Shown here in pieces: positions 31,105-50,550 of a stretch of DNA of 64,000 nt (the first letter of the stretch is position 1; each line of letters starts with the position of its first letter). The translations under genes and the position numbers were made by a program. The notes under the pieces were generated by a model that saw only the letters and a list, made by a program, of their open reading frames with translations, was not told the origin of the DNA and ran no database searches. This stretch comes from Azonexus sp. (GTDB taxonomy: Bacteria; Pseudomonadota; Gammaproteobacteria; Burkholderiales; Rhodocyclaceae), in assembly GCF_041909095.1 (NCBI RefSeq), contig NZ_JAYREB010000003.1, positions 136,826 to 200,825 of the forward strand. Direction: 5' to 3'.

Positions 31105-31112
31105 GGGGGGGG
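31105..31112 (+). repeat. Homopolymeric G8 tract (same intergenic region)
   Basis: Read directly from the sequence: gtgaGGGGGGGGc. Confidence 0.9.
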
Positions 31113-31220
31113 CGAACGAAAATATGCACTTGCCCTGCCGCTTCATGGCAATATCATGGACTGCTTATCTAGATTGACTTGAGTGCTGGCGCGTTTCACG
31201 CCGCATCGACCTGCTTCTTC

Positions 31221-32360
31221 ATGACTTCGTCCCTGCCGGATCAACACGAAACCCTGCGTCGCTGGCGCCTGATCCTCGGCCGCTATGCCGAGGCGCCGAT
31301 GTCTTCCTGCACCAGTTTTTCCGGCCAGGACTGGCAACTCGATCAAACCCTCGATTTCCTTTACGGGCGCGAATACGAAGGGCGCGGCCTGGTGCGCGGC
31401 GGGGGGGGGGCGCTTGATCCGAGTCAGATTCAGGCGGTCGACTGGCTGAACCGCTCGCGCAAGCTGTTTCCCCGGGATGTCTACGAGCGCATGCAGACGC
31501 AGGCCGTCGAGCGTTACCAGATGACCGAATTGCTCAGCGACCCGGCCCTGCTCGAAGCGCTCGAACCGACACCGGCGCTGACCAAGGCCTTGATTTCGAT
31601 GCGCGGACGTCTTTCCGGGCAGATGCGGGATGCGGTGCGGCAGATCATCCGGCGCACCGTCGACGAGATCACCCGGCGCCTGCGCCAGGACTTCGTCAAT
31701 GCCCTCAGCGGCCGGCGTAACCGGCAGCGGCGCTCGTCGCTCAAGGATTCGCGCAATTTCGATGCGCGGGCAACCATCCTCGCCAACCTCAGGCACTTCG
31801 ATGTTGGGAGCAAACGCCTGCTGATCGAGCGCCCCTTGTTCAACGCCCGCGTCAAGCGCCATCTGCCCTGGGACGTCATCCTCTGCGTCGACCAGAGCGG
31901 CTCGATGCTCGACTCGGTCATCTACAGCGCCGTCCTCGCCGGCATCATGGCCAGCCTGCCGGCCGTCCGGGTCAAGCTCGTGCTGTTCGACACCAGTGTC
32001 GTCGACCTGACGCATCTCGCGCACGATCCGGTGGAAGTACTGCTCACCGTGCAACTGGGCGGCGGCACCGATATCGGTCGCGCTCTGCGCTATTGCGAAA
32101 CCCTGGTCGACCAGCCACAACGGACGGTTCTGGTGCTGATCAGTGACTTCGAGGAAGGGGCGCCGCCCCTGCATCTTCTTGCTGCCGTGAAGCGCCTCGC
32201 CGAATCCCGCGTCACCCTGCTCGGCCTGGCCGCGCTCGACGATGCCGCGACCCCCATTTACGACCGGCTGATGGCGCAGCGACTGGCCGATCGCGGCATG
32301 CAGATCGCCGCCCTGACGCCGCCCCATTTTGCCGAGTGGCTTGCGGAAGTCATGCAGTAG
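31221..32360 (+). CDS. CoxE-like von Willebrand factor A (vWA) domain protein, YehP-like
   Basis: N-terminal RWRLILGRY..., MIDAS motif ILCVDQSGSM with downstream GGGTDIG and LISDFEEG. I chose ATG 31221 over the TTG at 31179. Confidence 0.85.
   Translation: MTSSLPDQHETLRRWRLILGRYAEAPMSSCTSFSGQDWQLDQTLDFLYGREYEGRGLVRGGGGALDPSQIQAVDWLNRSRKLFPRDVYERMQTQAVERYQMTELLSDPALLEALEPTPALTKALISMRGRLSGQMRDAVRQIIRRTVDEITRRLRQDFVNALSGRRNRQRRSSLKDSRNFDARATILANLRHFDVGSKRLLIERPLFNARVKRHLPWDVILCVDQSGSMLDSVIYSAVLAGIMASLPAVRVKLVLFDTSVVDLTHLAHDPVEVLLTVQLGGGTDIGRALRYCETLVDQPQRTVLVLISDFEEGAPPLHLLAAVKRLAESRVTLLGLAALDDAATPIYDRLMAQRLADRGMQIAALTPPHFAEWLAEVMQ
31401..31410 (+). repeat. Homopolymeric G10 tract inside the vWA coding sequence
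   Basis: ggc GGG GGG GGG Gcg encodes RGGGGA at roughly codons 59-64 of the vWA gene. It is the longest mononucleotide run I found in the window. Confidence 0.9.
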
Positions 32361-32421
32361 ATGCTCGCCTGCCAATCATTGATATTTCAATCAAGGGACG
32401 CATCGCTTTGCTGCGTTCTGC

Positions 32422-35349: not shown

Positions 35350-35744
35350 TGCCCATGTCGCGATCTGATCAATACTGCCCTGTCAAACTGGGCGATTCGT
35401 GGCCGGATGCCCAGGCGGCACTCGATACGACAGCAGCCTTGGAACCCTATTTCAACGATCCGGCGGTGCAGTCGGGCTGGCACATCAATCTGTTCGAGCG
35501 AGGGATCTGGCTCTTTCTCGATGACGCGTTGCGGATACGCACGCTGCGTTTCGATGCCCCGTTTGCTGGCGCGATAGATGGCGTGCGTATCGGCGACACA
35601 AGCCGGCAGGTCCGTCAGATAAAAGGCAAGTTCGATCGCAAATGGCCGGTCAATGATGGCCGGAAAACCTGGTTGTACGACTCGCCGTTCGTCAGGTTTG
35701 ATTTCAACGTCGCCAGCGATACGGTTGAGACGATCTTCTTGTGA
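35349..35744 (+). CDS. Hypothetical 131-aa protein, translationally coupled (TAATG) to the upstream gene
   Basis: ORF with overlapping stop/start. No recognisable motif. Confidence 0.4.
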   Translation: MPMSRSDQYCPVKLGDSWPDAQAALDTTAALEPYFNDPAVQSGWHINLFERGIWLFLDDALRIRTLRFDAPFAGAIDGVRIGDTSRQVRQIKGKFDRKWPVNDGRKTWLYDSPFVRFDFNVASDTVETIFL

Positions 35745-35798
35745 TTGATCGATTCTTCCCGATGGCGGCAAGCCATGCGCCGGGCAAAAATCGGCCGG

Positions 35799-35815
35799 TT
35801 TTCCGGTTGACCGTG
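35799..35815. repeat. Copy A of the 17-nt motif TTTTCCGGTTGACCGTG
   Basis: Identical to 50582-50598, the right arm of the terminal hairpin. Lies in the 84-nt gap before the SWIM gene. Confidence 0.8.
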
Positions 35816-35828
35816 GAGTCTTGCTGAA

Positions 35829-37880
35829 ATGCACTGGATTGTCGCCTGTCGCGCCTACGACGACGAGACCCTGGCCACGCTCGCCAATCCGGGGCTGCTG
35901 CGGCGCGCCTACAAGGATGTCGAAGCGGGCAAGCTGCGCTGGCTGGAAGAGGGCGCGCAAGGCGGCGTCATCGAAGCCGATGGCCAGCGCGTCAAGCTCG
36001 ACGCTCAGGGACCGCAAAAGGCGAGCTGCGATTGTCCGGCACCCGGCGTGTGCAAACACATCCTGGCCGCCGTGCTGTGGTTGCGTGCACAGCCCGTCGC
36101 CGACCAAAACGCCGTTGCCGGCGGGAGCGACGAGGTCGCCAGCGCACCGGACCCCCTCGCCGATCTGCTCGCCAGCCCGGGCGACCTGGTGCTCAAGGCC
36201 GCTGGCGTTGGTGCCGTGCGCCGGGCGGCCGAGATGCCCGTGATCGAGGCCGAATGGCACGTCCAGGGCGGGGCGCTGGTGATCACCCTGCCTGAACTGG
36301 GGGCCAGTTGTCGCTGGATCGTCGGCGCCGGCTTTGCCGGCATGGTGTCGGAAATCGCTGCCAGGGAACGCAAGCTCTTCCATCTGCTGGCCGTTGCCGC
36401 CGTGCGCCGCGCCGCCGGTCTGCCGGCCTTGTGGGTCGCCTCGCTGCCGGTTTTCGACACCGCCGCGTTGAGTGGGCGCGAGCGGGCTTTCCTGGCACAG
36501 CTGCGGGGAACGCTCGACGAGTTGATTCGGGCCGGACTTTCCCATGTCGGTCGGCAAACCTCGGCGCGTCTGCTGGCGCTCAACATGTCGGCGCGCGCCG
36601 AAGGCCTGCCGCGCCTGGCCGCCCTGTTGCGCAACCTGGGCGGGATGGTCGGCGGGCTGGCTGGCCGCGACCATCGCGTCGAAGAACATGATGTCCTGCG
36701 CCTGATCGCCCAACTCCACGCCTTGAGTGAGGCCCTGCTCGCGATCGGCGAGCTGCGTGACGCAGCGACGGCAGCCCGCATGCAGGCACTGCGCGGACGC
36801 TTGCAACGCAATTATGCGGCTGGCGGCGCGCTCGACGTGCTGCCGCTCGGCGCCTGGTGGTGGCAGACCGACGGCGGCGCCCGCGGCCTGACGCTGGCGA
36901 TGTGGGATATCGCTGCGGCGCGTGCCGTGCAAGCGGTGCTGGCACGGCCGGATGGCAGCGATCGCGGATTTGACCGTCAGCGGGCGTGGTCGCAGATGAT
37001 CCTGTGGGACGGGGCCGGCAGCGCCGAAAGCATCGGCAGCATGCCGTGGCATCTGGAAGCAGTGCGCATGGCGGAAGACGGACGTCTTGCGGTCGGCGGT
37101 GCGACGCAGGCCACGGCGCTGTCGCCCTGGTCGGCCGACGATGCGCGCCTGGCCGCTATCGGCTGCCGCGACTGGACCGACGTCGGTGACGCGCTGCGTG
37201 CCGCAGGCGGCCTGGCCGGGCAGGGCGCCGATCTGATCCTGCTGCGCCCGGCCAGCGTCGGCGAGCCGTGGCTTGATGAGGCGGCACAGCGGATCGAGTG
37301 GCAACTGCTCGATCATGCCGGACGTGCATTGACCCTGCTGCTGCCCTGCGAGGAGCGCACCCGGCAACGGATGCTCAACCTCGAACGCCTGCACGCCCGG
37401 CGGGCGCCGGTGCACGGCGTGCTGGTGCGGGTCGGCGACGCAGCGCGCGGCGAGCTGGAAGTGCTGACGGTCCTGAGCGCCGACCCGCAGGGCATGCTGC
37501 AAACGATTTCCCTCGATTACGCGCATGAAGCTGCGCCGCCCAAGGCCGGGCTGGGGCAGCGCATCCTTCGTCTGCTCGAGAAACGGCGTCAGCAAAAAGC
37601 GCCACCAACACTGTCCACGCCCTCCGCTCTGGCGCGTCTCCTGACGCCCCTGCTGGCTTTCCTGGAAACCCAGGCGGCCCTGGGGCGACTGGTGCTGAGC
37701 GTTGCCGACAGCGAACGCCTGCAGGCCACGGCCGCCGCGCTTGGCGCCGTCGGTCTGGAAAGCCTGCGCCGCAGCCTGCTGGCGCATGCGGCGGCGCCGA
37801 CGGCGGGCAGTCTGCTGCAGCTTTATTACCTAGGACAGCGCCTTCTGGCGATGGAAGGCCTGAGCAGCAGCGAGTTCTAG
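35829..37880 (+). CDS. SWIM zinc-finger protein, YehQ-like
   Basis: CxCx5CxH signature near the N-terminus (ASCDCPAPGVCKHILAAVLWL). The remaining ~600 aa are Ala/Leu/Arg-rich and look helical. Confidence 0.75.
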   Translation: MHWIVACRAYDDETLATLANPGLLRRAYKDVEAGKLRWLEEGAQGGVIEADGQRVKLDAQGPQKASCDCPAPGVCKHILAAVLWLRAQPVADQNAVAGGSDEVASAPDPLADLLASPGDLVLKAAGVGAVRRAAEMPVIEAEWHVQGGALVITLPELGASCRWIVGAGFAGMVSEIAARERKLFHLLAVAAVRRAAGLPALWVASLPVFDTAALSGRERAFLAQLRGTLDELIRAGLSHVGRQTSARLLALNMSARAEGLPRLAALLRNLGGMVGGLAGRDHRVEEHDVLRLIAQLHALSEALLAIGELRDAATAARMQALRGRLQRNYAAGGALDVLPLGAWWWQTDGGARGLTLAMWDIAAARAVQAVLARPDGSDRGFDRQRAWSQMILWDGAGSAESIGSMPWHLEAVRMAEDGRLAVGGATQATALSPWSADDARLAAIGCRDWTDVGDALRAAGGLAGQGADLILLRPASVGEPWLDEAAQRIEWQLLDHAGRALTLLLPCEERTRQRMLNLERLHARRAPVHGVLVRVGDAARGELEVLTVLSADPQGMLQTISLDYAHEAAPPKAGLGQRILRLLEKRRQQKAPPTLSTPSALARLLTPLLAFLETQAALGRLVLSVADSERLQATAAALGAVGLESLRRSLLAHAAAPTAGSLLQLYYLGQRLLAMEGLSSSEF

Positions 37881-37948
37881 TGGTTTATTGCGTGCCCCTG
37901 GCGGGGCGAAATCCGGATGTGCTGATCAAAAACAAGGAGGTCAAGGAG

Positions 37949-40900
37949 ATGAGTTTGTTACAGAAGATGAGGGACGTTTTTTCCGACAAGAAGCAGAGCG
38001 ATGGCCTGAGCAGCGCCCAGCAGAAGTTGCTGAGCGAGGCCTTCGCCTCGCTGGCACCGGCCGGCAAGAACCTGCCGGCGAAAGCCATGCGCTACCTGCT
38101 CGAAGGCGTCGATGAAGACGTCCTGCTCGATCTCCAGAACGCCGGTTCGCCACATCCCGGCATCCTGCTGGGCGAGCCGGGGCGGCTGCGCTCCTCCTTC
38201 TCGGGCTATGACAACAAGGTCGAGGAAAAGAACGGAGAAAGCAGCCTGAAAGCCCGTTCGGCCTTCTACGCCACGCTTGAAGCAGCAACGATGCCGCACG
38301 CCCTGATGGTTCGCCTCGGCAAGCTGCTGCAGTCGGCCGATGGCCGCAAGTCGCTGGAGCCGATGGGTTCCCAGGTGCCGGACTGGTGTGATTACCTGGT
38401 CAACGACGCCTTGTACGCCAGTTTCAACCGTAGCTGGCTTTCCTCTGACGACAAGAAAGCCTTCCCTCACGACCGGCGCGCCTTCACCGTGCCCAATCTG
38501 GCCATCATGCTCGAGCTTGAAGGGGTGCCGGACTGGCAAGTCCTGCAACTGGCCTTCGAGCGCAATGGGCTGGACAACTACTATCAGGACCGGTTGGACT
38601 TCCTGATCAGCAATCCGGCGACATTCGACTTCATGCTGAGCAAGCCTGAACTGGTGAAGTACCTGCCGAGCAATCTGAGCGCACTGGGGCGGACCAAGCT
38701 GGCCGAGTGTCTGGGCGCCAGGCCGGCCGAGAACGAGCTGTTGTCGGTGATACTGGTGCTGCTCGCGGTCGATGGCGCCAAGGCCGTCCGGGCCGAGGCC
38801 GCCAGCCATCTCGAAGGGGTGCCGGAGCGCCTGCGTCTGGGCTGTCTCGCCGGCTTCCTGCTGCAGGGTGACAGCGGGCAACGCCAGTACGCTGCCGAAT
38901 TGTTTGCCCGCTGGCCCAGCGCCGAGGTCAAGGCAACACTGGAAGCTGCGCTGGCCCAGGAAAAAGGCAAGAGCGTTCAGCAGGCCATTCGCGGCGCCTT
39001 GAGCCGGATCGATGCGGTCGACGAAGCGGCGGCCCAGGATCTGCCGCCGCTGCCCGCGTGGACACCGCTGCCCGACGAGCCACTGGGGCCGGAATTCGAG
39101 AAAATACTGCTGGCCAACCGGGTTGAATTGCTGGAAAGCCTGCGCCAGGACGCCGAAGAGGAAAAAAAGGAAAATGCCACCAGCACCAGTAGATGGAAAT
39201 CATCCTGGCGGCAAGATATCTACAAGGAATACATGCAGCTGACCGACGCGCACTTGCGTGTCGCCGTGCAGGTGATGAACGGTCAGCCCGCCAGCAAGCA
39301 ACTGGTCGGAAAAATCAAGGCGCAGGTCTGGAAGACCCTGGACCATCAGGATAAATTCCTGGAGTTGCCCGGTCTGAGCGGCGTGCATCTGATCCGCTGG
39401 CTCAACTACGCGGACGCCGAAGGCGATTTCTGGCGCCACGAGGAGTTCCAGCAATGGCTCACCCAGCAGGAAGCCGGGACGGTCGACCTGCGCGCCATTG
39501 CCGACGTGGTGCAACGCAACGGCGGCGCTCTCACCGCAGTCGCCAGCGCCGCCCTGGTCGATTACTGGCGCGCGCCCACTGCCACTGAATTTCTGCCGCC
39601 GGACTGCGTCTGGCCGTTTTTTGCCGAGCATCCCGAGTTTATCGACATCGCCCTCGAGATCGCCGCACCCGCCGAGTTCGAAAGCTACCGTGGCACCCCG
39701 CGCCTGGGCGCGACCTTGCGTACTCTGGAAATTTTCCCCGTCATCCCCGGGCGCTGGTTGCCGCGCCTGATGGAAATCGCGCTGGGCGAAACCCGGGCCT
39801 ACCGGGGAGATGCCCAGAAAGTGCTCGCCCGCGTGCCCGAGATCGGCAAGCAGGTGCTTGAATTCCTGACCCACTCGAAGAGCGAAATGCGCATCGAAGC
39901 TGCTCGCTGGCTGGCCGATCTGCAATATCAGCCGGCGGTCGAAGCGATCAGGAAGGCGCTGGTCAAGGAAAGCCGGGAGGCCGTGCGCGCTGCCTTCCTG
40001 ACCACGCTGGAAGCGCTGGGCGCAGACATCGCCGCCTACATTGCCCCGGACGTCCTGCTCGCCGAAGCGAAGAAGGGGCTGAAAGCCAAGCTGCCGGCCG
40101 GCCTCGACTGGTTCAATCTGGATGCGCTGCCGGCCTGCCAATGGGCGGACGGAACGCCGGTCGAGGCGGAATGCATCAAATGGTGGGTGGTCTTCGCCTG
40201 CAAGCTCAAGGAGCCGGGCGGCAACGCGCTGCTCACGCGCTACCTCGGCCTGCTCGACGCCGCCAGCCGCGAAGCGCTGGGCCGCCACATCCTCCACCAG
40301 TTCATCGCCCAGGATATCCGCCATCCCAGCGAAGCCGAATGCATCGCCCACGCCGACGCCACGGCTCCTCGCCGCTGGCAGCAGTGGCAGACCTATTACC
40401 AGCGCAACAAGGACGAGTTCTACAACCGCAGCCAGGAACAGATCTACGCTGAATGCAAGGCCAGCAAGGCTGCCGAATACCTCGGCAGTGCCATCGGCGA
40501 AAAAGGCATCCTCGCCTTGTCCGCCTACGCGCCCGGCCACGAAGCCGTCAACTTGCTGCGCCAGTACATGCGTGATCACTACCCCCGGCGGGCGCAGATC
40601 GAAGCCATGCTCGAAGGACTGGCACCTGGCAACGATCCTTTCGTCATCCAGCTCCTGCTCGGCCTCTCCCGCCGCTATCGCACCGCCTCGGTGCAGGAGA
40701 AGGCGCGCCTGCTGGTGCAGCAGATCGCCGACCGCAACGGCTGGTCAGCCGATCAGCTCGCCGACCGCACCATCCCCACCGCCGGCTTCGACGACAGCGG
40801 CAAGCTCGAACTGCATTATGGCGACCGCCTGTTCACCGTCACCCTCGACGCGGCGATGAAACCCGAACTGCGCAACGCCGAAGGCAAGGTCATCAAGGCC

Positions 40901-41746
40901 CTGCCCGAACCCCGGCAGACCGACGATCCGGACAGCATCAAGGAAGCCAAGGGGCAATTCTCGGGCTGCAAGAAGGAACTCAAGCAGGTCATCGAATTGC
41001 AGACCGCCCGCCTCTACGAAGCCCTTTGCGTCAGTCGCCTCTGGCCGCAGGCCGAGTGGCGCGAATACCTCCTGCAGCATCCGGTGGTCGGGCGCCTGAT
41101 CCAGCGCCTGATCTGGCTGGAAACCGACGCCCAGGGCCAGCCGCTGCAAAGCTTCCGGCCGACCGAGGACGGCACGCTGATCAACACCGACGATGACGAA
41201 ATCACGCTCGGCGAAGGCAGCCTGATCCGCCTCGCCCACGCCTCGCTCGTTACGCCGGACAGCGCCAAAGCCTGGCAGGCGCATTTCAAGGACTACAAGC
41301 TCAGCCCGCTCTTCGCGCAGATGACCCGGCCCTTGCCCGAGATCGCGATGACCGATGCTGAAGGCAAGCCGGTTCAGGAAATCGCCGATCGCCAGGGCTG
41401 GCTGAGCGACACCTTCACCCTGCGCGGTGCCTTCAACAAGCTGGGCTACCAGCGCGCCGCCGCCGAGGATGGCGGCTTCTTCGATCATTACTTCAAGGAG
41501 TTCGGTGCCGCCGGCATCCGCGTGGTGGTCGAATTCACCGGCAACTGCCTGCCCGAGGAAAACGTCGTGGCGGCGCTGCGCGTCCTGCGTTTCGAAGATA
41601 TGCGTGGTGGCCGCTGGCGGGCTGAGACGCTGGACCTTGCAGCCGTGCCGGTGGTCCTGCTGGCCGAGGCCTATGCCGACTATCTGGCGGTAGCCAATGT
41701 CTGTTCCGGTTTCGACCCGGAATGGGAAAAGAAAAGTCCGTGGTGA
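37949..41746 (+). CDS. Giant HEAT-repeat / DUF4132-like protein, paralog A (YehI/MolR-like)
   Basis: 1265 aa from ATG 37949 (AAGGAGG 8 nt upstream). HEAT/PBS-lyase-like unit SEMRIEAARWLADLQYQPAVEAIRKAL. The C-terminal ~450 aa match my recollection of the DUF4132 region of E. coli YehI/MolR. Context: next to MoxR, vWA and SWIM genes. Confidence 0.7.
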   Translation: MSLLQKMRDVFSDKKQSDGLSSAQQKLLSEAFASLAPAGKNLPAKAMRYLLEGVDEDVLLDLQNAGSPHPGILLGEPGRLRSSFSGYDNKVEEKNGESSLKARSAFYATLEAATMPHALMVRLGKLLQSADGRKSLEPMGSQVPDWCDYLVNDALYASFNRSWLSSDDKKAFPHDRRAFTVPNLAIMLELEGVPDWQVLQLAFERNGLDNYYQDRLDFLISNPATFDFMLSKPELVKYLPSNLSALGRTKLAECLGARPAENELLSVILVLLAVDGAKAVRAEAASHLEGVPERLRLGCLAGFLLQGDSGQRQYAAELFARWPSAEVKATLEAALAQEKGKSVQQAIRGALSRIDAVDEAAAQDLPPLPAWTPLPDEPLGPEFEKILLANRVELLESLRQDAEEEKKENATSTSRWKSSWRQDIYKEYMQLTDAHLRVAVQVMNGQPASKQLVGKIKAQVWKTLDHQDKFLELPGLSGVHLIRWLNYADAEGDFWRHEEFQQWLTQQEAGTVDLRAIADVVQRNGGALTAVASAALVDYWRAPTATEFLPPDCVWPFFAEHPEFIDIALEIAAPAEFESYRGTPRLGATLRTLEIFPVIPGRWLPRLMEIALGETRAYRGDAQKVLARVPEIGKQVLEFLTHSKSEMRIEAARWLADLQYQPAVEAIRKALVKESREAVRAAFLTTLEALGADIAAYIAPDVLLAEAKKGLKAKLPAGLDWFNLDALPACQWADGTPVEAECIKWWVVFACKLKEPGGNALLTRYLGLLDAASREALGRHILHQFIAQDIRHPSEAECIAHADATAPRRWQQWQTYYQRNKDEFYNRSQEQIYAECKASKAAEYLGSAIGEKGILALSAYAPGHEAVNLLRQYMRDHYPRRAQIEAMLEGLAPGNDPFVIQLLLGLSRRYRTASVQEKARLLVQQIADRNGWSADQLADRTIPTAGFDDSGKLELHYGDRLFTVTLDAAMKPELRNAEGKVIKALPEPRQTDDPDSIKEAKGQFSGCKKELKQVIELQTARLYEALCVSRLWPQAEWREYLLQHPVVGRLIQRLIWLETDAQGQPLQSFRPTEDGTLINTDDDEITLGEGSLIRLAHASLVTPDSAKAWQAHFKDYKLSPLFAQMTRPLPEIAMTDAEGKPVQEIADRQGWLSDTFTLRGAFNKLGYQRAAAEDGGFFDHYFKEFGAAGIRVVVEFTGNCLPEENVVAALRVLRFEDMRGGRWRAETLDLAAVPVVLLAEAYADYLAVANVCSGFDPEWEKKSPW
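39735..41745 (+). repeat. Dispersed direct repeat, copy 1 (3' third of paralog A)
   Basis: Aligns colinearly with 44901-46911 at a constant offset of 5166 nt. By eye, identity is about 85-90% up to about 40405. It is then perfect from 40411 to 41166. After that there are scattered mismatches. Confidence 0.9.
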
Positions 41747-41806
41747 CCGGGTAATTTCTGCCTTGAGCCTGCCCTTCCTCCCTTTTCCAAATTCCTGGGA
41801 AATACG

Positions 41807-43000
41807 ATGCCTGACGAGCTTTACGACCAATACAGCGACGAAATTTTCTATGCCAACACCCTCGCCGGCGCGCAGCCTGACAAGGTGCGGGCGATCTACA
41901 TCAGCTACGAACCTGGCGATTGCATTTCGCTCAAATTCCCCGAGTTGCGCTACCTGAGCTATTGCCAAGCCACGCCGGACTGGGGGGGCATAACTCGGCT
42001 GAAAAAACTGGTGCATTTCAGCTGCAAAGGCGCCTACGGCAAAATTCCGCAAGCGCTGCACGAACTGCTGCAAGGAAACACCGGGCTGATCGAACTGGAG
42101 ATCGACAATACGGGACTGCATCTGGACGACCGCCTTGCTGGCATCGGAACCTTCAAAAACCTGCGCGCGCTCGAACTCAACAACATCGAGCTGCCAGCTT
42201 TCCCAGCCGGCATCGGCCAACTCGGCGAACTGCGCCGACTTTCTCTCGCCAATAGCGGATTGAGAAATTTCCCGGACGTACTCTGCGAACTGCACCATCT
42301 TGAAGAGCTTGATCTTTCCGGCAATCCGATCAGCGAACTGCCCGAAGCCATCGGCCAACTGCATAAATTGAGAAAACTGGACATCACCCAATGCGCCCTG
42401 AGCAGCCTGCCCGAATCGCTTGCCGACCTGCCCGATCTCGAATCCGTGCTCGCCACGGGCAACACCTTCACGCAACTCCCGTTCGGCCTGAAAAAACTCA
42501 AGTCGAAGCTGGTCGTGGAACTTAAATACCGCGCGCTCTACGACGAAGTTGCCCGCAAAAAACACCACCGTCTCGGACAAAAGCCGGCGATTTTCAAGGA
42601 TTTCGGGTTCAAGCTGATGGTTATCCAGAAGCTGATGTACGACGAAAAAGTGCTTCGCCCCATCTTCGACGTCTACGACTTTGCAGCAAACCACTCCGCC
42701 CGAAAAATCGACCTCGAAGGCGCGGAAGCCTACGGCGTCATCCCTGAGGTGCGCGACCATTTCCTGAACCTGGAAATCCCGCTGGCCCTGCTCGAAGACA
42801 TCAAAACGCTCTACGCCGACGGCGGTGACGAAATCTACGCCCAACTCGCTCCGCGCTGGGGCGGCGAAGACGACTTTTTCAATGTTAACTCAGCCGCCGA
42901 CGCCAAACTGCTGCCTAACCTGAAGGAAGTCACCTCTCCTTTCTTGTCCGGCAAAGCCATCAAGCAACTTGAAAAACTGGCGATTGAGGTCGATTGCTGA
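41807..43000 (+). CDS. Leucine-rich repeat (LRR) protein with an uncharacterised C-terminal domain
   Basis: Consecutive LxxLxLxxNxL units (LRALELNNIELPAFPAGIGQLGELRRLSLANSGLRNFPDVLCELHHLEELDLSGNPISELPEAIGQLHKLRKLDITQCALSSLPESLADLPDLESVLATGNTFTQLP). About 50% GC in sampled 60-nt lines, against 65-75% in flanking genes. Confidence 0.85.
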   Translation: MPDELYDQYSDEIFYANTLAGAQPDKVRAIYISYEPGDCISLKFPELRYLSYCQATPDWGGITRLKKLVHFSCKGAYGKIPQALHELLQGNTGLIELEIDNTGLHLDDRLAGIGTFKNLRALELNNIELPAFPAGIGQLGELRRLSLANSGLRNFPDVLCELHHLEELDLSGNPISELPEAIGQLHKLRKLDITQCALSSLPESLADLPDLESVLATGNTFTQLPFGLKKLKSKLVVELKYRALYDEVARKKHHRLGQKPAIFKDFGFKLMVIQKLMYDEKVLRPIFDVYDFAANHSARKIDLEGAEAYGVIPEVRDHFLNLEIPLALLEDIKTLYADGGDEIYAQLAPRWGGEDDFFNVNSAADAKLLPNLKEVTSPFLSGKAIKQLEKLAIEVDC

Positions 43001-43026
43001 ACGAAGCGGACGACCAAGTGCGTTGT

Positions 43027-43046
43027 CACGGTCAACCCGAAAATCG
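43027..43046. repeat. Copy B (degenerate, opposite orientation) of the shared motif
   Basis: CACGGTCAACCCGAAAATCG versus the left hairpin arm CACGGTCAACCGGAAAAAACG at 50556-50576. Lies in the 126-nt gap after the LRR gene. Confidence 0.6.
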
Positions 43047-43126
43047 TTGATTTTTGGCATTGGCGACCAAAGTGCCTCGACTGAGTTGAGGCATTAAAAC
43101 CGAAAGAATGTTAAACGGAGCATGTT

Positions 43127-46100
43127 ATGGATTTGATGAGCAAAATCAGGGAATACGTCGCCAGCCTGGCAGGCAAGCAGCCGCCTGCCGTGCCTCGCGA
43201 TTTGAGCAAGGAACAACAAAAGTGGCTTGAACAGGCTTTCGCGCCGCTCGCCTGTGCCGACAAGGGGATGCCGGACAAGGTGCTGAACTATGTTTTAACG
43301 GGTGGGAACGAGGCTGTTCTGCATGAGCTGCGGCAATCGAAGGAACTTGGCTCCCAATTGGGGCAGCCGGGCCGTCTGCACGGCAGTTACCACGGCGGCG
43401 GAAAGCTAACCGAAAAGAGCATGGCGGCACGCGCCAGGTTTTATGCCAGTCTGGATGCCGATGCGCCGCCTCTTGGTGTGATGGTCCGCTTGGGCAAGGT
43501 GCTGACCATGGCGGATGCCGGCGAGTCGCTTGAGGATCCGGGGGCGCCGGTGCCGACATGGTGCCAGTACCTGGTCAATGACGCCATGTTCGCCAGTCTG
43601 AACCATTACTACGTGAGCAGTGACATGAAGGCGCTCCTGGAGAGCAAGCGGGGTGCGTTCTCGCTCCCCAATCTCCTGGCGATGCTCAAAAGCGAGGAGG
43701 AGGAGGGCAACAAAGTCCCTTCGGAACTCACTGTGCTGCAATTGGTGTTTGAGCGCCAAGGGCTGACCAATCCCGACAACGACGCCCTCGAGGTGATTGT
43801 CGATCACCCCGCAACGCTGCAATTCATGCGCGATTACCCGCAACTGGTGGCAGTGCTGCCGCGCGTTCTCGCTGCTGCCGGGCGTGTGCTTCTGGCGAAT
43901 TTTCTCGGGCGGCACAAGGAGCTCGCCGCCGAATGCAAGGAATTCGGCGTGGCGCTGGTGGCGCTGGCCGTCGATAGTGGCAAGACCGTGCGTGCCGCAG
44001 CCACGCCCCATCTGGACGGCTTGCCGGAAGAGTTGCGGATGGGACTGCTGGCCTTCTTCCTGCAACGGGGCGAGGGCACGGTGCGACAGTACGCGGCTGA
44101 CTTGCTGGTCCGCTGGCCGTCTCCCGAGGTTCGGGCAACGCTGGAAGCTGCGCTGGCAGAAGAGAGCAGCAAGAGCGTTCAGCACAGCATTCGCGGCGCC
44201 CTGGGCCGGCTTGACGTGGCCGACGACTCCGACGGCCAGGATTTTCCCCCGTTGCCAGACTGGACGCCGTTGCCGGATGAGCCGCTGGGGCCTGAGGTCG
44301 AGAGCCTCCTTTTGGCCAATCGGCGTGAATTGCTGGAAAACTATCGCCTGGAAGCCGAAGAGGAGAAGCGGAAAAACGCCGCCCAGAAGGGGCGGGATCA
44401 CACCTGGCGACAACGTCAGTACAAGGAGTTCATGGCGCTCACTGACGACGATTTGCGCCTTGCGCTAAAGGTGATCAACGGTCAGTCAACCGACAAGGAG
44501 TTGAGCACCGAACTCGGCGCCGATCTCAGGGAAATCCTGGAACATGAGGGAAAAATCTTTGCATTGCCCGCTTTTGGGGGGGCGCATCACATCCGTTGGC
44601 GGAGCTACTTTGACGAGGATGGCGATTTCTGGCCGTTTGATGAATTTCATCAATGGCTCTTGAAACAGCCGGTCGGTTCGGTCGATCTGCGCGCCCTTGC
44701 CGATGTCGTGCAACGTTCCGGATATTCGTTGGAAACAGTGGCTCGTGCATCACTGGTCGATTTCTGGCGTAATCCTCCCGCATTTGAAGTTCTCCCGCCG
44801 GAATGTGTCTGGCCTTTCTTTGCCGAGCACCCTGAATTCATCGATGCCGGCCTGAACACTTCCGCCCGGTTGGACGCCACGATACGGACCATCGGTACCT
44901 TTCCGGTGATTCCCGGTCGCTGGTTGCCGCGTCTGATGGAAATTGCGCTGGGCGAGGCCTGGGAATGCAGGGCCGAGGCCCAGAAGGTTCTTGGCATCGT
45001 CCCGGATATTGGTAAATATGTACTGGAGACGCTGACCCATTCGAAGAGCGAGATGCGTATTGAAGCCGCCTGCTGGCTGGCCAATCTGCAATATCAGCCG
45101 GCGGTCGAAGCGATCAGGAAAGCTTTGGTCAAGGAAAGCCGTGAAGCCGTGCGCGCCGCTTTCCTGACCGCGCTGGAAGAGTTGGGCGCAGATATTGCCG
45201 CCTACATTGCCCCGGACGTCCTGCTCGCCGAAGCCAGGAAGGGGCTGAAAGCCAGGCTGCCGGCCGGCTTCGACTGGTTCAATCTGGATGCGCTGCCGGC
45301 CTGCCACTGGGCGGACGGCACGCCGGTCGAGGCGGACTGCATCAAATGGTGGGTGGTCTTCGCCTGCAAGCTCAAGTGGCCGGGCGGTAACCCGCTGCTC
45401 CGGCGCTACCTCGGCCTGCTCGACGCCGCCAGCCGCGAAGCGCTGGGCCGCCACATCCTCCACCAGTTCATCGCCCAGGACACCCGCCACCCCAGCGAAG
45501 CCGAATGCATCGCCTACGCCGACGCCTACGCTCCCGGTCGCTGGCAACAATTCCAGGGTAACTACAGGCGGACCAAGGACGAGTTCTACAACCGCAGCCA
45601 GGAACAGATCTACGCTGAATGCAAGGCCAGCAAGGCTGCCGAATACCTCGGCAGTGCCATCGGCGAAAAAGGCATCCTCGCCTTGTCCGCCTACGCGCCC
45701 GGCCACGAAGCCGTCAACTTGCTGCGCCAGTACATGCGTGATCACTACCCCCGGCGGGCGCAGATCGAAGCCATGCTCGAAGGACTGGCACCTGGCAACG
45801 ATCCTTTCGTCATCCAGCTCCTGCTCGGCCTCTCCCGCCGCTATCGCACCGCCTCGGTGCAGGAGAAGGCGCGCCTGCTGGTGCAGCAGATCGCCGACCG
45901 CAACGGCTGGTCAGCCGATCAGCTCGCCGACCGCACCATCCCCACCGCCGGCTTCGACGACAGCGGCAAGCTCGAACTGCATTATGGCGACCGCCTGTTC
46001 ACCGTCACCCTCGACGCGGCGATGAAACCCGAACTGCGCAACGCCGAAGGCAAGGTCATCAAGGCCCTGCCCGAACCCCGGCAGACCGACGATCCGGACA

Positions 46101-46915
46101 GCATCAAGGAAGCCAAGGGGCAATTCTCGGGCTGCAAGAAGGAACTCAAGCAGGTCATCGAATTGCAGACCGCCCGCCTCTACGAAGCCCTTTGCGTCAG
46201 TCGCCTCTGGCCGCAGGCCGAGTGGCGCGAATACCTCCTGCAGCATCCGGTGGTCGGGCGCCTGATCCAGCGCCTGATCTGGCTGGAAACCGACGCCCAG
46301 GGCCAGCCGCTGCAAAGCTTCCGGCCGACCGAAGACGGCACGCTGATCAACACCGACGATGACGAAATCACGCTGAACGAAGGCAGCCTGATCCGCCTCG
46401 CCCACGCCTCGCTCGTTACGCCGGACAGCGCCAAAGCCTGGCAGGCGCATTTCAAGGACTACAAGCTGACGCCGCTCTTCGCGCAGATGACCCGGCCCTT
46501 GCCCGAGATCGCGATGACCGATGCTGAAGGCAAGCCGGTTCAGGAAATCGCCGATCGCCAGGGCTGGCTGAGCGACACCTTCACCCTGCGCGGCGCCTTC
46601 AACAAGCTGGGCTACCAGCGCGCCGCAGCCGAGGATGGCGGCTACTTCAATCATTACTTCAAGGAGTTCGGTGCCGCCGGCATTCGCGTGGTGGTGGAAT
46701 TCACCGGTAACTGCCTGCCCGAGGAAAACGTGGCGGCAGCGCTGCGCGTCCTGCGTTTCGAAGATACGCGGGGTAGCCGCTGGCAGTCGAATAACCTGGA
46801 TCTCGCCAGCGTGCCGGTGGTTCTGCTGGCCGAGGCCTATGCCGACTATCTGGCGGTAGCCAATGTCTGTTCCGGCTTCGATCCGGAGTGGGAAAAGAAA
46901 AGTCCGTGGTATTGA
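43127..46915 (+). CDS. Giant HEAT-repeat / DUF4132-like protein, paralog B (YehI/MolR-like)
   Basis: 1262 aa. ACGGAG lies 6 nt upstream of ATG 43127. Colinear with paralog A over its full length. The N-terminal ~640 aa are only about half identical, and the C-terminal ~440 aa are nearly identical. Confidence 0.7.
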   Translation: MDLMSKIREYVASLAGKQPPAVPRDLSKEQQKWLEQAFAPLACADKGMPDKVLNYVLTGGNEAVLHELRQSKELGSQLGQPGRLHGSYHGGGKLTEKSMAARARFYASLDADAPPLGVMVRLGKVLTMADAGESLEDPGAPVPTWCQYLVNDAMFASLNHYYVSSDMKALLESKRGAFSLPNLLAMLKSEEEEGNKVPSELTVLQLVFERQGLTNPDNDALEVIVDHPATLQFMRDYPQLVAVLPRVLAAAGRVLLANFLGRHKELAAECKEFGVALVALAVDSGKTVRAAATPHLDGLPEELRMGLLAFFLQRGEGTVRQYAADLLVRWPSPEVRATLEAALAEESSKSVQHSIRGALGRLDVADDSDGQDFPPLPDWTPLPDEPLGPEVESLLLANRRELLENYRLEAEEEKRKNAAQKGRDHTWRQRQYKEFMALTDDDLRLALKVINGQSTDKELSTELGADLREILEHEGKIFALPAFGGAHHIRWRSYFDEDGDFWPFDEFHQWLLKQPVGSVDLRALADVVQRSGYSLETVARASLVDFWRNPPAFEVLPPECVWPFFAEHPEFIDAGLNTSARLDATIRTIGTFPVIPGRWLPRLMEIALGEAWECRAEAQKVLGIVPDIGKYVLETLTHSKSEMRIEAACWLANLQYQPAVEAIRKALVKESREAVRAAFLTALEELGADIAAYIAPDVLLAEARKGLKARLPAGFDWFNLDALPACHWADGTPVEADCIKWWVVFACKLKWPGGNPLLRRYLGLLDAASREALGRHILHQFIAQDTRHPSEAECIAYADAYAPGRWQQFQGNYRRTKDEFYNRSQEQIYAECKASKAAEYLGSAIGEKGILALSAYAPGHEAVNLLRQYMRDHYPRRAQIEAMLEGLAPGNDPFVIQLLLGLSRRYRTASVQEKARLLVQQIADRNGWSADQLADRTIPTAGFDDSGKLELHYGDRLFTVTLDAAMKPELRNAEGKVIKALPEPRQTDDPDSIKEAKGQFSGCKKELKQVIELQTARLYEALCVSRLWPQAEWREYLLQHPVVGRLIQRLIWLETDAQGQPLQSFRPTEDGTLINTDDDEITLNEGSLIRLAHASLVTPDSAKAWQAHFKDYKLTPLFAQMTRPLPEIAMTDAEGKPVQEIADRQGWLSDTFTLRGAFNKLGYQRAAAEDGGYFNHYFKEFGAAGIRVVVEFTGNCLPEENVAAALRVLRFEDTRGSRWQSNNLDLASVPVVLLAEAYADYLAVANVCSGFDPEWEKKSPWY
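44901..46911 (+). repeat. Dispersed direct repeat, copy 2 (3' third of paralog B)
   Basis: Partner of 39735-41745. The perfect block 45577-46332 equals 40411-41166. Confidence 0.9.
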
Positions 46916-46942: not shown

Positions 46943-48049
46943 ATGAGCAAAACAACTTCTTCTCCTTCGCAGGCCGTGCGCCTGCCGCCGGAGCAACGTT
47001 ACGCCGATGAACTGGCGCGGCTCGCCGAACATGATGGCGAGCCGCGCCCGGCCGGCTGGAAACTGTCGCCCAAGGCGGTGCGCCGCTTCATCATCGGCGA
47101 TGAAAAACTGGGCGTGACGCGCAAGTTCTACGGCGACGATCCGCTGGTCGACCGCGCCATCGTCACCTTGATGGGCCATCAGGGCCTGATGCTGGTCGGC
47201 GAGCCGGGGACCGCCAAATCGCTGTTGTCGGAGTTGCTGTCCACCGCCATCAGCGGCGATTCCGGCCTGACTGTGCAAGGGACGGCCGGCACCACCGAGG
47301 ATCACCTGAAATACAGTTGGAACTACGCGCTGCTGCTCGCCGAGGGGCCGAGCCAGCGGGCGCTGGTGCCGTCGCCGTTGTATCAGGGCATGCGCCAGGG
47401 CAAGATCGTCCGCTTCGAGGAAATCACCCGCTGTCCGCCGGAAATCCAGGACGTGATGATTTCCCTGCTCAGCGACAAGCAGTTGATGGTGCCGGAACTG
47501 GGCGACGACGCCCGCCTGCATGCGCAACGTGGCTTCAACGTCATCGCCACCGCCAACCTGCGTGACCGGGGCGTGCATGAGATGTCCTCAGCCTTGAAGC
47601 GGCGTTTCAATTTCGAGACGGTGCGGCCGATTCGCGACCATGCCTTCGAGGTCGAACTGGTCACCGCACAGGTGCAGCGCGAAATGGTCGGCAGCGGCGC
47701 GGCGGTGGCCTTGCCGCAGGATGTCGTGGCGCTGCTGGTGACGACCTTCCAGGAATTGCGCGCCAGCCAGACCAAGGACGGCGTGGCGCTGAAGAGTCTG
47801 GATACGGTGATGTCCACCGCCGAGGCGGTCAACGTGGTCTATGCGGCGGCGCTGGAGGCGCAGCATTTCAACGGTGGCAAGCTGACGGCGCGCGAGATTG
47901 CCGGGCAGTTGCAGGGCGTCGTCCTCAAGGACAGCCTCGACGACGCCAAGCGCGTGCGCCACTATTTCGAGACCGTGGTGCGCGAGCGCGGCAAGCGCGA
48001 CGGCAACTGGAAGGCCTTTCACGACGCGGCGCGGGCACTGTGGCAATAG
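46943..48049 (+). CDS. MoxR-class AAA+ ATPase (AAA_5-type), YehL-like
   Basis: Walker A LVGEPGTAKS, Walker B-like IVRFEEI, VIATANLRDRG...SSALKRRF. The 368-aa single-AAA architecture is typical of MoxR-family partners of vWA proteins. Confidence 0.88.
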   Translation: MSKTTSSPSQAVRLPPEQRYADELARLAEHDGEPRPAGWKLSPKAVRRFIIGDEKLGVTRKFYGDDPLVDRAIVTLMGHQGLMLVGEPGTAKSLLSELLSTAISGDSGLTVQGTAGTTEDHLKYSWNYALLLAEGPSQRALVPSPLYQGMRQGKIVRFEEITRCPPEIQDVMISLLSDKQLMVPELGDDARLHAQRGFNVIATANLRDRGVHEMSSALKRRFNFETVRPIRDHAFEVELVTAQVQREMVGSGAAVALPQDVVALLVTTFQELRASQTKDGVALKSLDTVMSTAEAVNVVYAAALEAQHFNGGKLTAREIAGQLQGVVLKDSLDDAKRVRHYFETVVRERGKRDGNWKAFHDAARALWQ

Positions 48050-50550
48050 AAACAAGCGAATTGCCGCGCGAACTACGGGCCGCGCAGGCCGAACTGGCCG
48101 GGTGCGATGGCCTGTATTTCGCGCCGGTGCGGCATCACAGCCCGGCCTGTACGCTGGCCTTGCGGCATTTGCTGCACGAGGTGCGGCCGAGCGTCGTCCT
48201 GGTCGAGGGACCGGACGATCTCGATCACCTGCTGCCCCTGTTGCAGGACGAGCGCACCCGGGCGCCGGTCGCCTGGTTGTGCCAGAGCGGGCAGGCGGCG
48301 GCCGGCCGCGACGAAGCAGCAACGGAGGACGGAGATGATGCCGGCGACGACGAGACCGAACGGCCGGCGATGCGCACCTCCTTCTTCCCGTTCTGCGATT
48401 ACAGCCCGGAATGGCTGGCCATCCGCGAGGGGGCGGCGCTCGGCGCGCAGGTCGCGCTGATCGATCTGCCCTGGGCGCACAAGGCCTGGCAGGCCGAGCA
48501 CGACGCCGCCGGCCTGAGCCTGATGCATGAGCGGCATTACGCACACAGCCGCTATCTCAAGGCGATGGCTGCTCGCCTGGGCTGCGTCGACCATCACGAA
48601 CTGTGGGACCGCCTGTTCGAACTGCGTTCGCCGGCCGCGCTGGCCGACTGGCGGGGATTCTTTGCCGACGTCTTCGCCTGGTCGGCGATGGCGCGCCAGG
48701 ACTACGAGCCGGAAGTGCTCGAAGCCGAACTCAGCCTGCCGCGCGAACGCCAGATGGCGGCGCATATCCGCGCCTGGCGGGAAAAGTGCACCGGCAACAT
48801 CGTCGTCGTCACCGGCGGTTTCCATACCCAGGAGCTGATTTCCCGCTGGCGTCAGGCTGGCCGGCCGGAGAAACTGCCGGCCAGCGCGTCGGCGGAAGGG
48901 GGCGCCTGGCTGATCCGCTATGCCTTCGAGAGCCTGGATGCCTTGAACGGCTATTCGGCAGGGATGCCTTCGCCGGCCTATTACCAGCAGCTCTGGGAAG
49001 CCTTGCAGACTGCCGATGACGATCCCTGGCAGCGCATCGCGGTCGATCTCCTGAGCCGCTTCGCCCGCCAGCAACGCGACGTAGACCAGGCCGACGCCGC
49101 GTCGACCGCGCTGGTCCAGGAGGCCGTGTTGCAGGCCACGCGGCTGGCCCAGTTGCGCGGCAACGCCGGGCCGGGACGGCAGGATGTGCAGGACGCCATC
49201 CGTTCCTGTTTCGTCAAGGGGGCGGATGACGATGGTACGCGCGGCATGCTTGGCGACTTGCGCCGCTTTCTGGCCGGGACGCGCATCGGCGACGTGCCGC
49301 CCGGCGCCGGATCGCCGCCGCTGGTCGAGGATGTTCGCCGCCAGGCGAGGTCGCTCGGCTTGCAGCTTGACGACAGTGTGCCGCGCAAGGTCCGTCTCGA
49401 CCTTTATCGCAAGCCGTCACATCGTCTGCGCAGCCGCTTCTTCCACGCGATGCGTTATCTCGAATGCCCGCTGGTCCGCCATCTGAGCGGCCCGGATTTT
49501 TACGGCAACGCCCAGTTGCACCTGCTGTTCGAAGAATGGGAGGTGGCCTGGTCGCCGCTGGTCGATGCGCGCCTGATCGAACTGAGCAGCGCTGGCGCCA
49601 GCCTTGAAGCGGTGTGCCTGCAACGCCTGGAGGACGATGCCCGCGCCCTCGAAACGGCGGGCGCGACGCGCAGTGCCAGCGCCGCCGTCGGCCTCCTGCT
49701 GCGCGCCTGCCTGATCGGTTTGCACAGGCGTCTGCCGCAGCTGTTCGAACTGCTGTCGACGCAGCTTGACGAAGATGCCTCGCTGGCCTCGGTGGTCGAT
49801 TGCGGTCATCGTCTGCTCACCCTCTGGCGCGCCCGCGAACCGCTCGGTGTCCAGGCGCATCCGTTGCTCGGCAGCCTGCTCGGCCGGGTCTGGCCGGCGG
49901 CGATGTTCCTGCTTTCGGAAATCGTCTGGAGCGATCCGGACACGGCAGACGAGCGTATCGGTCAGCTGCTTGCCCTGCGCGAACTGGGGAAGCTGCTCGA
50001 AAATACGGAATTCCACGGGCAAGCGGAAAAATTGATCGATTTTGCCATCCTCCACGCCCGGCTCGTGGCTCTGCTCGCCGATCCAGCCACGGCGCCAGGC
50101 ATCGCCGGCGCGGCCGCCGCCATGCTGTTTCTCGACGGTCTCGGCGACGAAGCGCGGCTCGAGCAGCAGCTTCTGCTGCATTTTTCGCCCGGCGTGCCCG
50201 AACACCACGCCGTGCGTTTTCTCGGTGGTTTGATGCAGGCAGCGCCGGAACTGCTCCTGCGCCTGCCGTCCATGCTGCAGCGGCTGGACCGCTTGATCGC
50301 GGCCTGGGAGGGCGAGGATTTCATCGCCCATCTGCCCGATCTGCGCTTTGCCTTCACCCGCCTGAAGCCGCAGGAAAGCGCCCGGCTGGCGGAAACGATC
50401 GTGGCGTTGCATGGTCACGGGCCGGAAGCCGCCGCCAGCTTGTTGCCCTGGCATGGCGAAGTCAGCGAGGCCGATCTGATGGCGGGCAGTCGCCTGCAGC
50501 AGGTGCTGGCGCATGAGTTGAACCGGGACGGCCTGGGGGCCTGGATTTAG
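48040..50550 (+). CDS. Large uncharacterised protein, DUF5682/YehM-like
   Basis: 836 aa. GTG 48040 overlaps the AAA+ stop by 10 nt. The assignment rests mainly on its position directly downstream of the YehL-like ATPase and its size. I saw no catalytic motif. Confidence 0.5.
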   Translation: MAIETSELPRELRAAQAELAGCDGLYFAPVRHHSPACTLALRHLLHEVRPSVVLVEGPDDLDHLLPLLQDERTRAPVAWLCQSGQAAAGRDEAATEDGDDAGDDETERPAMRTSFFPFCDYSPEWLAIREGAALGAQVALIDLPWAHKAWQAEHDAAGLSLMHERHYAHSRYLKAMAARLGCVDHHELWDRLFELRSPAALADWRGFFADVFAWSAMARQDYEPEVLEAELSLPRERQMAAHIRAWREKCTGNIVVVTGGFHTQELISRWRQAGRPEKLPASASAEGGAWLIRYAFESLDALNGYSAGMPSPAYYQQLWEALQTADDDPWQRIAVDLLSRFARQQRDVDQADAASTALVQEAVLQATRLAQLRGNAGPGRQDVQDAIRSCFVKGADDDGTRGMLGDLRRFLAGTRIGDVPPGAGSPPLVEDVRRQARSLGLQLDDSVPRKVRLDLYRKPSHRLRSRFFHAMRYLECPLVRHLSGPDFYGNAQLHLLFEEWEVAWSPLVDARLIELSSAGASLEAVCLQRLEDDARALETAGATRSASAAVGLLLRACLIGLHRRLPQLFELLSTQLDEDASLASVVDCGHRLLTLWRAREPLGVQAHPLLGSLLGRVWPAAMFLLSEIVWSDPDTADERIGQLLALRELGKLLENTEFHGQAEKLIDFAILHARLVALLADPATAPGIAGAAAAMLFLDGLGDEARLEQQLLLHFSPGVPEHHAVRFLGGLMQAAPELLLRLPSMLQRLDRLIAAWEGEDFIAHLPDLRFAFTRLKPQESARLAETIVALHGHGPEAAASLLPWHGEVSEADLMAGSRLQQVLAHELNRDGLGAWI

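Follow-up and report, generated by a model that had tools for sequence, protein, structure and literature searches.

Tandem DUF4132 paralogs in a yeh-type operon of Azonexus form a mosaic generated by homologous recombination

How can two neighboring genes be deeply diverged over most of their length and yet be identical over several hundred nucleotides? This question is raised by a 64,000-nt stretch of DNA from Azonexus sp. (hereafter the window; positions 136,826 to 200,825 of contig NZ_JAYREB010000003.1, assembly GCF_041909095.1), which has a G+C content of 64%. The window contains an uncharacterized operon of the yeh type, in which two adjacent genes, A and B, encode large DUF4132/HEAT proteins. 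Our analysis indicated that A and B are a statistically extreme mosaic. It arose from homologous recombination between tandem paralogs and comprises an older and a younger tract. With a probability of about 0.68, we conclude that the 3’ third of the two genes has been homogenized repeatedly by homologous recombination (gene conversion or concerted evolution).

The A and B proteins are colinear. The DUF4132 match is located near the C-terminus, and a HEAT_2 match is found at about residues 635-695. A previous reading of the letters alone (the sequence-only reading) had described colinear DUF4132-like genes with a constant offset of 5166 nt, and this offset holds from about 39700 to 41744. Protein identity is 47% for residues 1-300, 58% for 301-584, 84% for 585-820, 100% for 821-1073 and 94% for the tail. 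The longest run without mismatches is 759 nt, from 40408 to 41166 in A and from 45574 to 46332 in B, encoding residues 821-1072. This perfect block had been recognized before, but with its left end at 40411 and a length of 756 nt. On its left, 39735-40410 contains 93 mismatches in 676 nt, and on its right, 41167-41746 contains 38 in 580 nt. When 91 mismatches were permuted over 1854 aligned nucleotides, a gap of at least 759 nt was found in 0 of 200,000 permutations (analytic bound 1e-19). A chance bound calculated from third codon positions only is 2e-10.

Divergence at synonymous (dS) and nonsynonymous (dN) sites was calculated by segment with the Nei-Gojobori method, and breakpoints were located by maximum chi-square on third codon positions. 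Three tiers of divergence are observed, not two. Between A and B, dS is 0.8-1.2 (saturated) over A residues 1-700, 0.18 over 701-820, 0.006 over 821-1073 and 0.15 over 1074-1264. The outer breakpoint is located at about 39905 (residue 653), where third-position mismatch falls from 53% to 14%. The inner-left breakpoint is located at 40406. On the right side, the breakpoint is found at 41516, not at the block end at 41166. Identity between the genes changes in steps at 39905 and 40406 rather than uniformly. The value of roughly 85-90% that the sequence-only reading gave from 39735 onward merges two regimes. The region 39700-39900 is only ~72% identical and its synonymous sites are saturated. Residues 585-700 have a dS of 0.9 with a dN of 0.1, indicating that the protein match over residues 585-650 is due to purifying selection and not to homogenization. 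The dN/dS ratio, now also calculated along the N-terminal regions, is 0.1-0.45 throughout A and B, consistent with purifying selection. Positive selection behind the N-terminal divergence is ruled out, since the ratio is in this range everywhere and dS itself is raised.

The tail of the proteins contains a variable loop (41605-41643 in A, residues 1219-1232; 46771-46809 in B), which reads MRGGRWRAETL in A and TRGSRWQSNNL in B. All of the tail amino-acid differences quoted in the sequence-only reading are present. Among the relatives introduced below, the loop is a two-allele population polymorphism. The A form is found in L016 and L019, and the B form or a form close to it in L020, L017, L018 and L027.

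The gradient from a variable N-terminus to a conserved C-terminus is partly family-wide. Between genera, identity is 40-47% for residues 1-584, ~64% for 585-820, 69-77% for 821-1073 and ~64% for the tail. The similarity between A and B far exceeds this gradient only from about residue 650 on. Three conserved motifs noted earlier in the N-terminal part are present, and the family consensus indicates that they are conserved family-wide. The single-copy contigs L017 and L018, from one study, differ from each other with a dS of 0.76-1.2 over residues 301-584 (window 38849-39700) and 0.10-0.24 in the C-terminal third. The middle region of DUF4132 appears to segregate as ancient allele classes that are exchanged by recombination, and N-terminal allele diversity is a property of the family in this population.

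We compared the region with contigs of relatives (L-labels) and with independent sequencing runs (X-labels). The runs are represented by short-read Logan contigs aligned to the region, and depths are contig means. L016, L019 and L020 differ from the perfect block at 7 sites each, and L017 and L018 at 67 and 69 sites, respectively. These differences indicate that the block is not mutationally cold. Three alleles, 40618A, 40639T and 40997T, are found in both window copies and in 0 of these five relatives. The affinity of B also changes along the gene. In the N-terminal part, its distance to all other sequences is 0.37. Over 39866-40408, B is about 0.10 from A and from L017/L018 alike. In the block, B is the same as A, and the distance is 0.009 to L016, L019 and L020 and 0.09 to L017 and L018. 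In the tail, B is nearest to L020 (0.021) and A is nearest to L019 (0.031). A patch of 93 nt with about 25 differences (40315-40407) abuts the block. In this patch B has the L017/L018 allele, and A-type and B-type versions are both present in X2, X3 and X5.

The sequencing runs revealed where the identical tract ends in other strains. In X2, a contig begins exactly at 40408 and has a depth of 411, compared to 212-224 in unique sequence. The double depth runs to ~41487, with 40997C, 41005T and the B-type alleles at 41209-11 and 41428. The alleles 40997C and 41005T are in both copies (depth 381 compared to 212-224). Beyond ~41487, separate single-depth contigs match the A tail and the B tail of the window. 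In X5, one contig covers 40408-41709 (depth 24.8 compared to 12-16). In X3, two contigs cover 40408-40943 and 40945-41744 (depths 14.1 and 10.5 compared to ~5) and carry L016-type alleles. X1, from activated sludge, is identical to the window, and its repeat depth is 145 compared to ~90. The right end of the identical tract is therefore located at 41166 in the window, ~41487 in X2, 41709 in X5 and 41744 in X3, and the left end at 40408 is common. Within a genome the two copies have matching alleles, and these alleles vary from one genome to the next. Together with a shared left end and a varying right end, this argues for concerted evolution. The gene-conversion or recombination tract proposed in the sequence-only reading is thus supported by the permutation test, by a block with no synonymous change next to regions with dS 0.15-0.18, by strain-private alleles in both copies and by tract ends that differ between strains.

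Could the perfect block have been produced without recombination? One possibility is that extreme purifying selection, acting on the encoded protein segment or on a DNA or RNA element within the block, kept the two copies identical. The block does encode the most conserved part of the family. However, all 253 third codon positions in it are identical, whereas 14-21% are mismatched beside it, and the differences of the orthologs L017 and L018 from the block are mostly synonymous (dS 0.35, dN 0.03). These synonymous-site data already refute selection alone, and we give it practically no weight. Another possibility is an artefact of assembly or polishing, in which one copy, or two differing copies, had a single consensus written into both places. 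The contig appears to be metagenome-derived, as X1 matches it without differences, a perfect repeat of 759 nt is difficult for short-read assembly, and the contig L016, from a metagenome-assembled genome (MAG), ends 100 nt past the gene. Yet four independent runs, which come from different studies, all have a contig break precisely at 40408, and the depth of words in the block is about twice that of the unique flanks in X1, X2, X3 and X5. In addition, X1 has no alternative contig inside the block, and its contig 41680-45113 joins the A tail, the LRR gene located between the paralogs, and B. Both copies are physically present on one molecule. The collapse that the sequence-only reading had considered is contradicted by the depths and the contig breaks, and an artefact is very improbable. 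A loose end at 40789 hinted at a third copy. This was ruled out; its sequence is absent from the window and looks like an unrelated contig.

How old is the pair? The sequence-only reading had suggested that paralog pairs may be intrinsic to the system. The relatives do not support this. One DUF4132 gene is found in each of 15 of 15 loci from other species, including Roseateles, Ideonella, a Rhodanobacteraceae genome, Massilia and Acinetobacter, within a conserved five-gene set. The five closer contigs, L016-L020, likewise hold a single copy. Through the SWIM gene and A, L016, L019 and L020 match the window at 97-98% identity; L017 and L018 are 84-85% identical. Compared to L019, the window has two extra stretches, 32355-35822 with the DUF4241-TPR gene and 41745-46910 with the LRR gene and B. 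L016 (MAG GCA_048222695.1, contig JBAMLB010007375.1) stops ~100 nt past its DUF4132 gene, just inside the AAA gene, and these last 100 nt are B-type downstream sequence. L016 may genuinely have one copy, or its assembly path may have crossed the repeat.

Exact look-ups of the A and B proteins gave no match, which may reflect differing start codons. A full HMMER search with the N-terminal part of B against representatives of 50%-identity clusters gave a best full-length match of 46% identity, and a 106-residue fragment, P0051, at 73% identity. The fragment led to contig L027. B-like N-termini did not turn up in either of two scans of JGI metagenome contigs. In L027, the 3’ end of a DUF4132 gene (SPWY*) is followed by a 35-nt spacer and then by a B-like N-terminus, with no LRR gene. 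The spacer resembles that between the DUF4132 and AAA genes. The B-like N-terminus is 75% identical to B and 47% identical to A at the protein level, and the first gene belongs to the L017/L018 clade (4% divergence). A loose end in X6 has the same LRR-less junction. The dS between B and its L027 counterpart is 0.58 (omega 0.27), and that between A and L017 in the same region is 0.40 (omega 0.24). The sequence-only reading had called A and B old paralogs, which is probably right given the B-like gene directly downstream of a DUF4132 gene in L027 and the same junction in X6. These sequence comparisons suggest, with reasonable likelihood, that A and B already stood in tandem before the two sub-clades separated, that the sub-clade of the window acquired the LRR gene afterwards, and that single copies were generated by deletion between the repeats. 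B would probably be an old paralog with frequent losses. Deletion between homogenized direct repeats would leave an A-type N-terminus with B-type downstream sequence, as seen in the single-copy loci.

The alternative is that B was gained recently. A cassette consisting of the LRR-DUF6892 gene and a divergent DUF4132 allele would have entered a single-copy locus by recombination in the conserved 3’ third, through a Campbell-type event or through duplication-insertion between sister chromosomes. In that case, the recipient’s own sequence would form the identical block on both sides of the crossover, the tail differences would be donor and recipient alleles, and the cassette would afterwards spread between strains in the same way. 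A number of observations are in line with such a gain and weigh against repeated homogenization of an old pair. The single-copy L016, L019 and L020 are nearly identical to the window and have the same right flank (AAA, DUF5682, ackA), which a recent gain of the LRR gene and B explains equally well. The G+C content at third codon positions (GC3) is 0.70 in the LRR gene and the N-terminal part of B, compared to 0.82 in the C-terminal part of B and 0.79-0.85 in resident genes (0.79 in the N-terminal part of A, 0.80-0.85 in resident operon genes). Left of the block there are about 18 private sites in B and 1 in A. Right of it, A has private alleles at 41209-11, 41428, 41566 and 41601 and B has none, as a crossover origin also predicts, and the tail of B is nearest to a single-copy contig, L020. 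The X2 cassette, from the LRR gene into the N-terminal part of B, has 0 differences from the window in 1413 + 1871 nt of contigs, though 41 of 2308 nt (1.8%) are different in the A N-terminal part. Repeated homogenization of an old pair, in turn, is weakened by the L027 contig, which is 2 kb long, has 2.9x coverage and contains a frameshift and an internal stop. All of the multi-strain evidence is from Logan short-read contigs, which can pop bubbles or cross repeats, and X3, X4 and X6 look like strain mixtures.

Other observations are difficult to reconcile with a recent gain. The LRR-less tandem B-like copy of the sister clade, seen in L027 and at the X6 junction, has a dS to B of the same order as that of A to its counterpart. 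Low GC3 characterizes the entire B lineage, as both B-type genes have it (0.71-0.73; 0.73 in the B-like gene of L027). The private alleles common to both copies of the block, and the others in X2 and X3, would still need conversion or repeated re-integration. A single simple Campbell crossover is ruled out as a sufficient cause, because the informative sites right of the block are mixed. We therefore consider a recent gain unlikely, although it deserves more weight than the other alternatives. The contrast in X2 between window 41680-45113 and 37500-39807 has two candidate causes: the cassette may have spread horizontally, or the allele of A may have been replaced.

Repeated homogenization of an old pair would proceed as follows. 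The duplication is probably old, because the first ~650 codons have saturated synonymous sites. The two direct copies would recombine non-reciprocally, so that the 3’ third is homogenized again and again. The 759-nt block would be the latest tract in this genome, and the older tract would span from ~39905 to the end of homology at 41744. The 93-nt patch, with its ~25 mismatches where the block ends on the left, may block strand exchange. The LRR-DUF6892 gene would have entered between the copies at a later time, next to the last codon of A. Recombination between the direct copies could also delete B and the LRR gene, giving rise to the A-type single-copy loci of close relatives. We infer that the cell would then make two alternative large subunits for one MoxR/VWA machine, with N-terminal solenoids that differ and a C-terminal part that is almost identical. 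This is probable because both copies are intact and under purifying selection.

The insertion between the paralogs has its left join at 41744/41745, between TGGT and GACC. The 3’ homology of A and B stops after TGGT, where A continues as TGG TGA CCGGG and B and all relatives continue as TGG TAT TGA TCG. The stop codon of A was thus created by the junction, and A ends in SPW instead of SPWY. The open reading frame (ORF) of A opens at a GTG at 37880, and the likely start is the ATG at 37949. A scan of 41600-43300 for promoters and terminators found nothing above background. Homologs of the LRR-DUF6892 gene elsewhere (75% and 47% identity; L022, L023-L026) do not adjoin DUF4132 genes, which supports the view that it is an independent insertion. 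They are located in islands of small hypothetical ORFs beside genes of the HigB-toxin and DMP19 families. The LRR part has sub-threshold matches to the XopAC, XopL and XopAE effector families of Xanthomonas.

The locus is flanked by a ribonucleotide reductase gene (minus strand) on the left and by ackA and pta (minus strand) on the right. The features are listed in the Table. The SWIM match of the 683-residue protein is weak, with 18.7 bits compared to the curated cut-off of 19.6; the position of this gene is kept in L001-L012. The 3.5-kb segment 32355-35822, which contains the DUF4241-TPR gene between the VWA and SWIM genes, is not found in L019 and L016, where the SWIM gene directly follows the VWA gene. 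In blastn comparisons of both contigs with the window, the match skips from 32354 to 35823. After the LRR-B stretch, this segment is the operon’s second insertion that is specific to the strain. Shared gene order with the close relatives stops at the start of the VWA gene (window ~27985-31190 compared to L019 1-6618 and L016 1-2540). Upstream of it, L019 and L016 have a 247-residue TPR protein where the window has the ribonucleotide reductase gene, and L019 additionally has a CheB/CheR-PAS-GGDEF-EAL protein. Farther upstream in the window, 20890-26009 contains a PilY1-like gene (1153 residues, minus strand) alongside a gene that carries a prepilin N-methylation motif. It is an ordinary type IV pilus cluster and has no relation to the paralogs.

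Table. Features of the operon and of the two DUF4132 paralogs, in window coordinates
Feature	Coordinates	Strand	Evidence or remark
VWA_CoxE protein, YehP-like, first gene of the operon	31179-32360	+	Pfam VWA_CoxE E 5e-51; 45% identity to E. coli YehP
DUF4241 + TPR protein (975 aa)	32422-35349	+	Pfam DUF4241 E 6e-39 plus TPR families; GC3 0.75
YehQ-like 683-aa protein, weak SWIM zinc finger	35829-37880	+	Pfam SWIM E 0.0012; YehQ 30% over 73 aa, E 1e-6
DUF4132/HEAT paralog A, 1265 aa	37949-41746	+	Pfam DUF4132 E 4e-34; HEAT_2
Tier 1, deeply diverged	37949-39904	+	dS 0.8-1.2, 47-58% aa identity
Tier 2 left, older homogenized stretch	39905-40407	+	dS ~0.18
Perfect block, A copy	40408-41166	+	759 nt, no mismatch
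Tier 2 right, A tail	41167-41744	+	6.2% different from B tail; includes variable loop 41605-41643
Inserted segment between paralogs, carries LRR + DUF6892 gene	41745-43112	+	Junction compared with L019 and L027
LRR + DUF6892 gene	41807-43000	+	Pfam DUF6892 E 4e-45 plus LRR families; GC3 0.70
DUF4132/HEAT paralog B, 1262 aa, ends ...SPWY* like single-copy relatives	43127-46915	+	Pfam DUF4132 E 1.5e-35; HEAT_2
Perfect block, B copy	45574-46332	+	759 nt, no mismatch
MoxR-type AAA+ ATPase (AAA_5), YehL-like	46943-48049	+	Pfam AAA_5 E 1e-36; YehL 52% over 351 aa
DUF5682 protein, YehM-like, last gene of the operon	48040-50550	+	Pfam DUF5682 E 4e-100; YehM 28% over 785 aa, E 6e-43

An AlphaFold model of residues 640-1265 is confident, with a pLDDT (predicted local distance difference test) of 84.5. 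It contains helical repeats to about residue 940, followed by mixed alpha/beta domains. The block (residues 821-1072) begins within the helical repeats and ends within the alpha/beta part of this model. Its limits match no predicted domain border, and they look mechanistic rather than selected. A Foldseek search of the model against the PDB gave nothing below E 0.1, only generic solenoid matches and a small YugN-like match. Sequence searches of PADLOC, NCBIfam and the PDB likewise offered no clue to what the DUF4132 proteins do. In the literature we found no published function for the yeh system; the four papers found to mention DUF4132 are silent on function, and the yeh genes appear only in gene lists.

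Judging from their sequences, both genes are probably functional. The sequence-only reading had proposed that conversion would keep a shared docking module identical. The conservation gradient is compatible with a C-terminal third that would dock to the MoxR, VWA, DUF5682 and SWIM partners and an N-terminus that would recognize differing targets. A more speculative extension, which we put forward tentatively and regard as doubtful, is that the DUF4132/HEAT protein may be an exchangeable specificity subunit (a sensor or adaptor). Specificities would be stacked in tandem, conversion would keep the docking C-terminus interchangeable, and the yeh system would be of a conflict or defense type with modular target recognition. 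The N-terminal solenoid would consist of ancient divergent allele classes shuffled between strains, in line with the divergence pattern of L017 and L018. If this is true, stacked specificities arose independently here and in E. coli, and the LRR-DUF6892 and DUF4241-TPR insertions would add to the picture of a conflict or defense-type system.

Partial concerted evolution of tandem paralogs is a textbook mechanism, and our results leave the view of recombination unchanged. Their value is in the dissection of a widespread operon of unknown function, which is present in E. coli as yehI and yehLMPQ. Its DUF4132 subunit combines a fast-diverging, allele-swapping N-terminal two-thirds with a slow, recombination-homogenized C-terminal third. 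DUF4132 copy number varies between near-identical strains, and the accessory LRR-DUF6892 and DUF4241-TPR genes insert into the operon. These features are testable handles on which subunit carries specificity. They also carry a practical warning. Perfect repeats of 0.76-1.3 kb break short-read assemblies, and strains with two copies can look single-copy in MAGs.

How does the locus compare to known systems? The E. coli yeh locus (yehF-yehH(molR)-yehI-yehK-yehL-yehM-yehP-yehQ) has the same gene set as the operon in the window, with the SWIM protein as a tentative counterpart of YehQ (30% identity over the N-terminus). The gene order is permuted, with the VWA and SWIM genes coming first in the window, and E. 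coli does not have the LRR-DUF6892 or DUF4241-TPR gene. The linkage of DUF4132 to the operon is kept in the 15 loci of other species. A and B are ~30% identical to YehI over the C-terminal 280-350 residues. E. coli likewise has two adjacent DUF4132 genes, as the sequence-only reading had stated, and yehH (molR) is a pseudogene in K-12. Unlike A and B, YehH and YehI are 37-43% identical at the protein level and have no homogenized DNA. A is closer to B than either of them is to YehI. The duplications in the window and in E. coli therefore look independent, and the YehH/YehI pair is most likely a separate event. DUF4132 pairs recur.

The operon also resembles the MoxR-vWA ‘ternary’ conflict systems, in which a MoxR AAA+/vWA pair has additional large, variable partners encoded beside it and the third component is VMAP, an inactive STAND, FtsH or a beta-propeller (Kaur, Burroughs, Iyer and Aravind 2020, PMC7159879). 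YehL is not mentioned in that paper. None of these four components has a Pfam match in the eight locus proteins, and a bpMoxR match is below threshold (E 1.7e-4, 21 bits compared to the cut-off of 27). PADLOC-DB 2.0 gave no meaningful model match, only a marginal one of PDC-S62 to the SWIM protein (E 2e-4, 17.9 bits).

Two further cases concern the mosaic itself. Rhs and CdiA loci with orphan modules have a constant core and an exchangeable variable end. Similarly, the neighboring A and B share a constant, recombination-prone part and have highly divergent variable parts, presence differs at the strain level, and an extra small gene goes with the variable part. However, the polarity is reversed, with a variable N-terminus and a constant C-terminus, and B is full-length with its own start rather than a displaced 5’-truncated fragment. 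Pfam, NCBIfam and PADLOC searches of the locus proteins detected no toxin or immunity families. RecA-dependent gene conversion gives rise to concerted evolution of bacterial duplicates such as tufA/tufB in Salmonella and E. coli and the rRNA operons. A and B are similar to these in that copies within a genome are closer than orthologs, tract ends are sharp and synonymous sites are homogenized. They differ in that only the 3’ third is homogenized, with 5’ two-thirds (63% DNA identity) too diverged to recombine, and in that A and B are arranged in tandem, so that the same repeats can also delete one copy.

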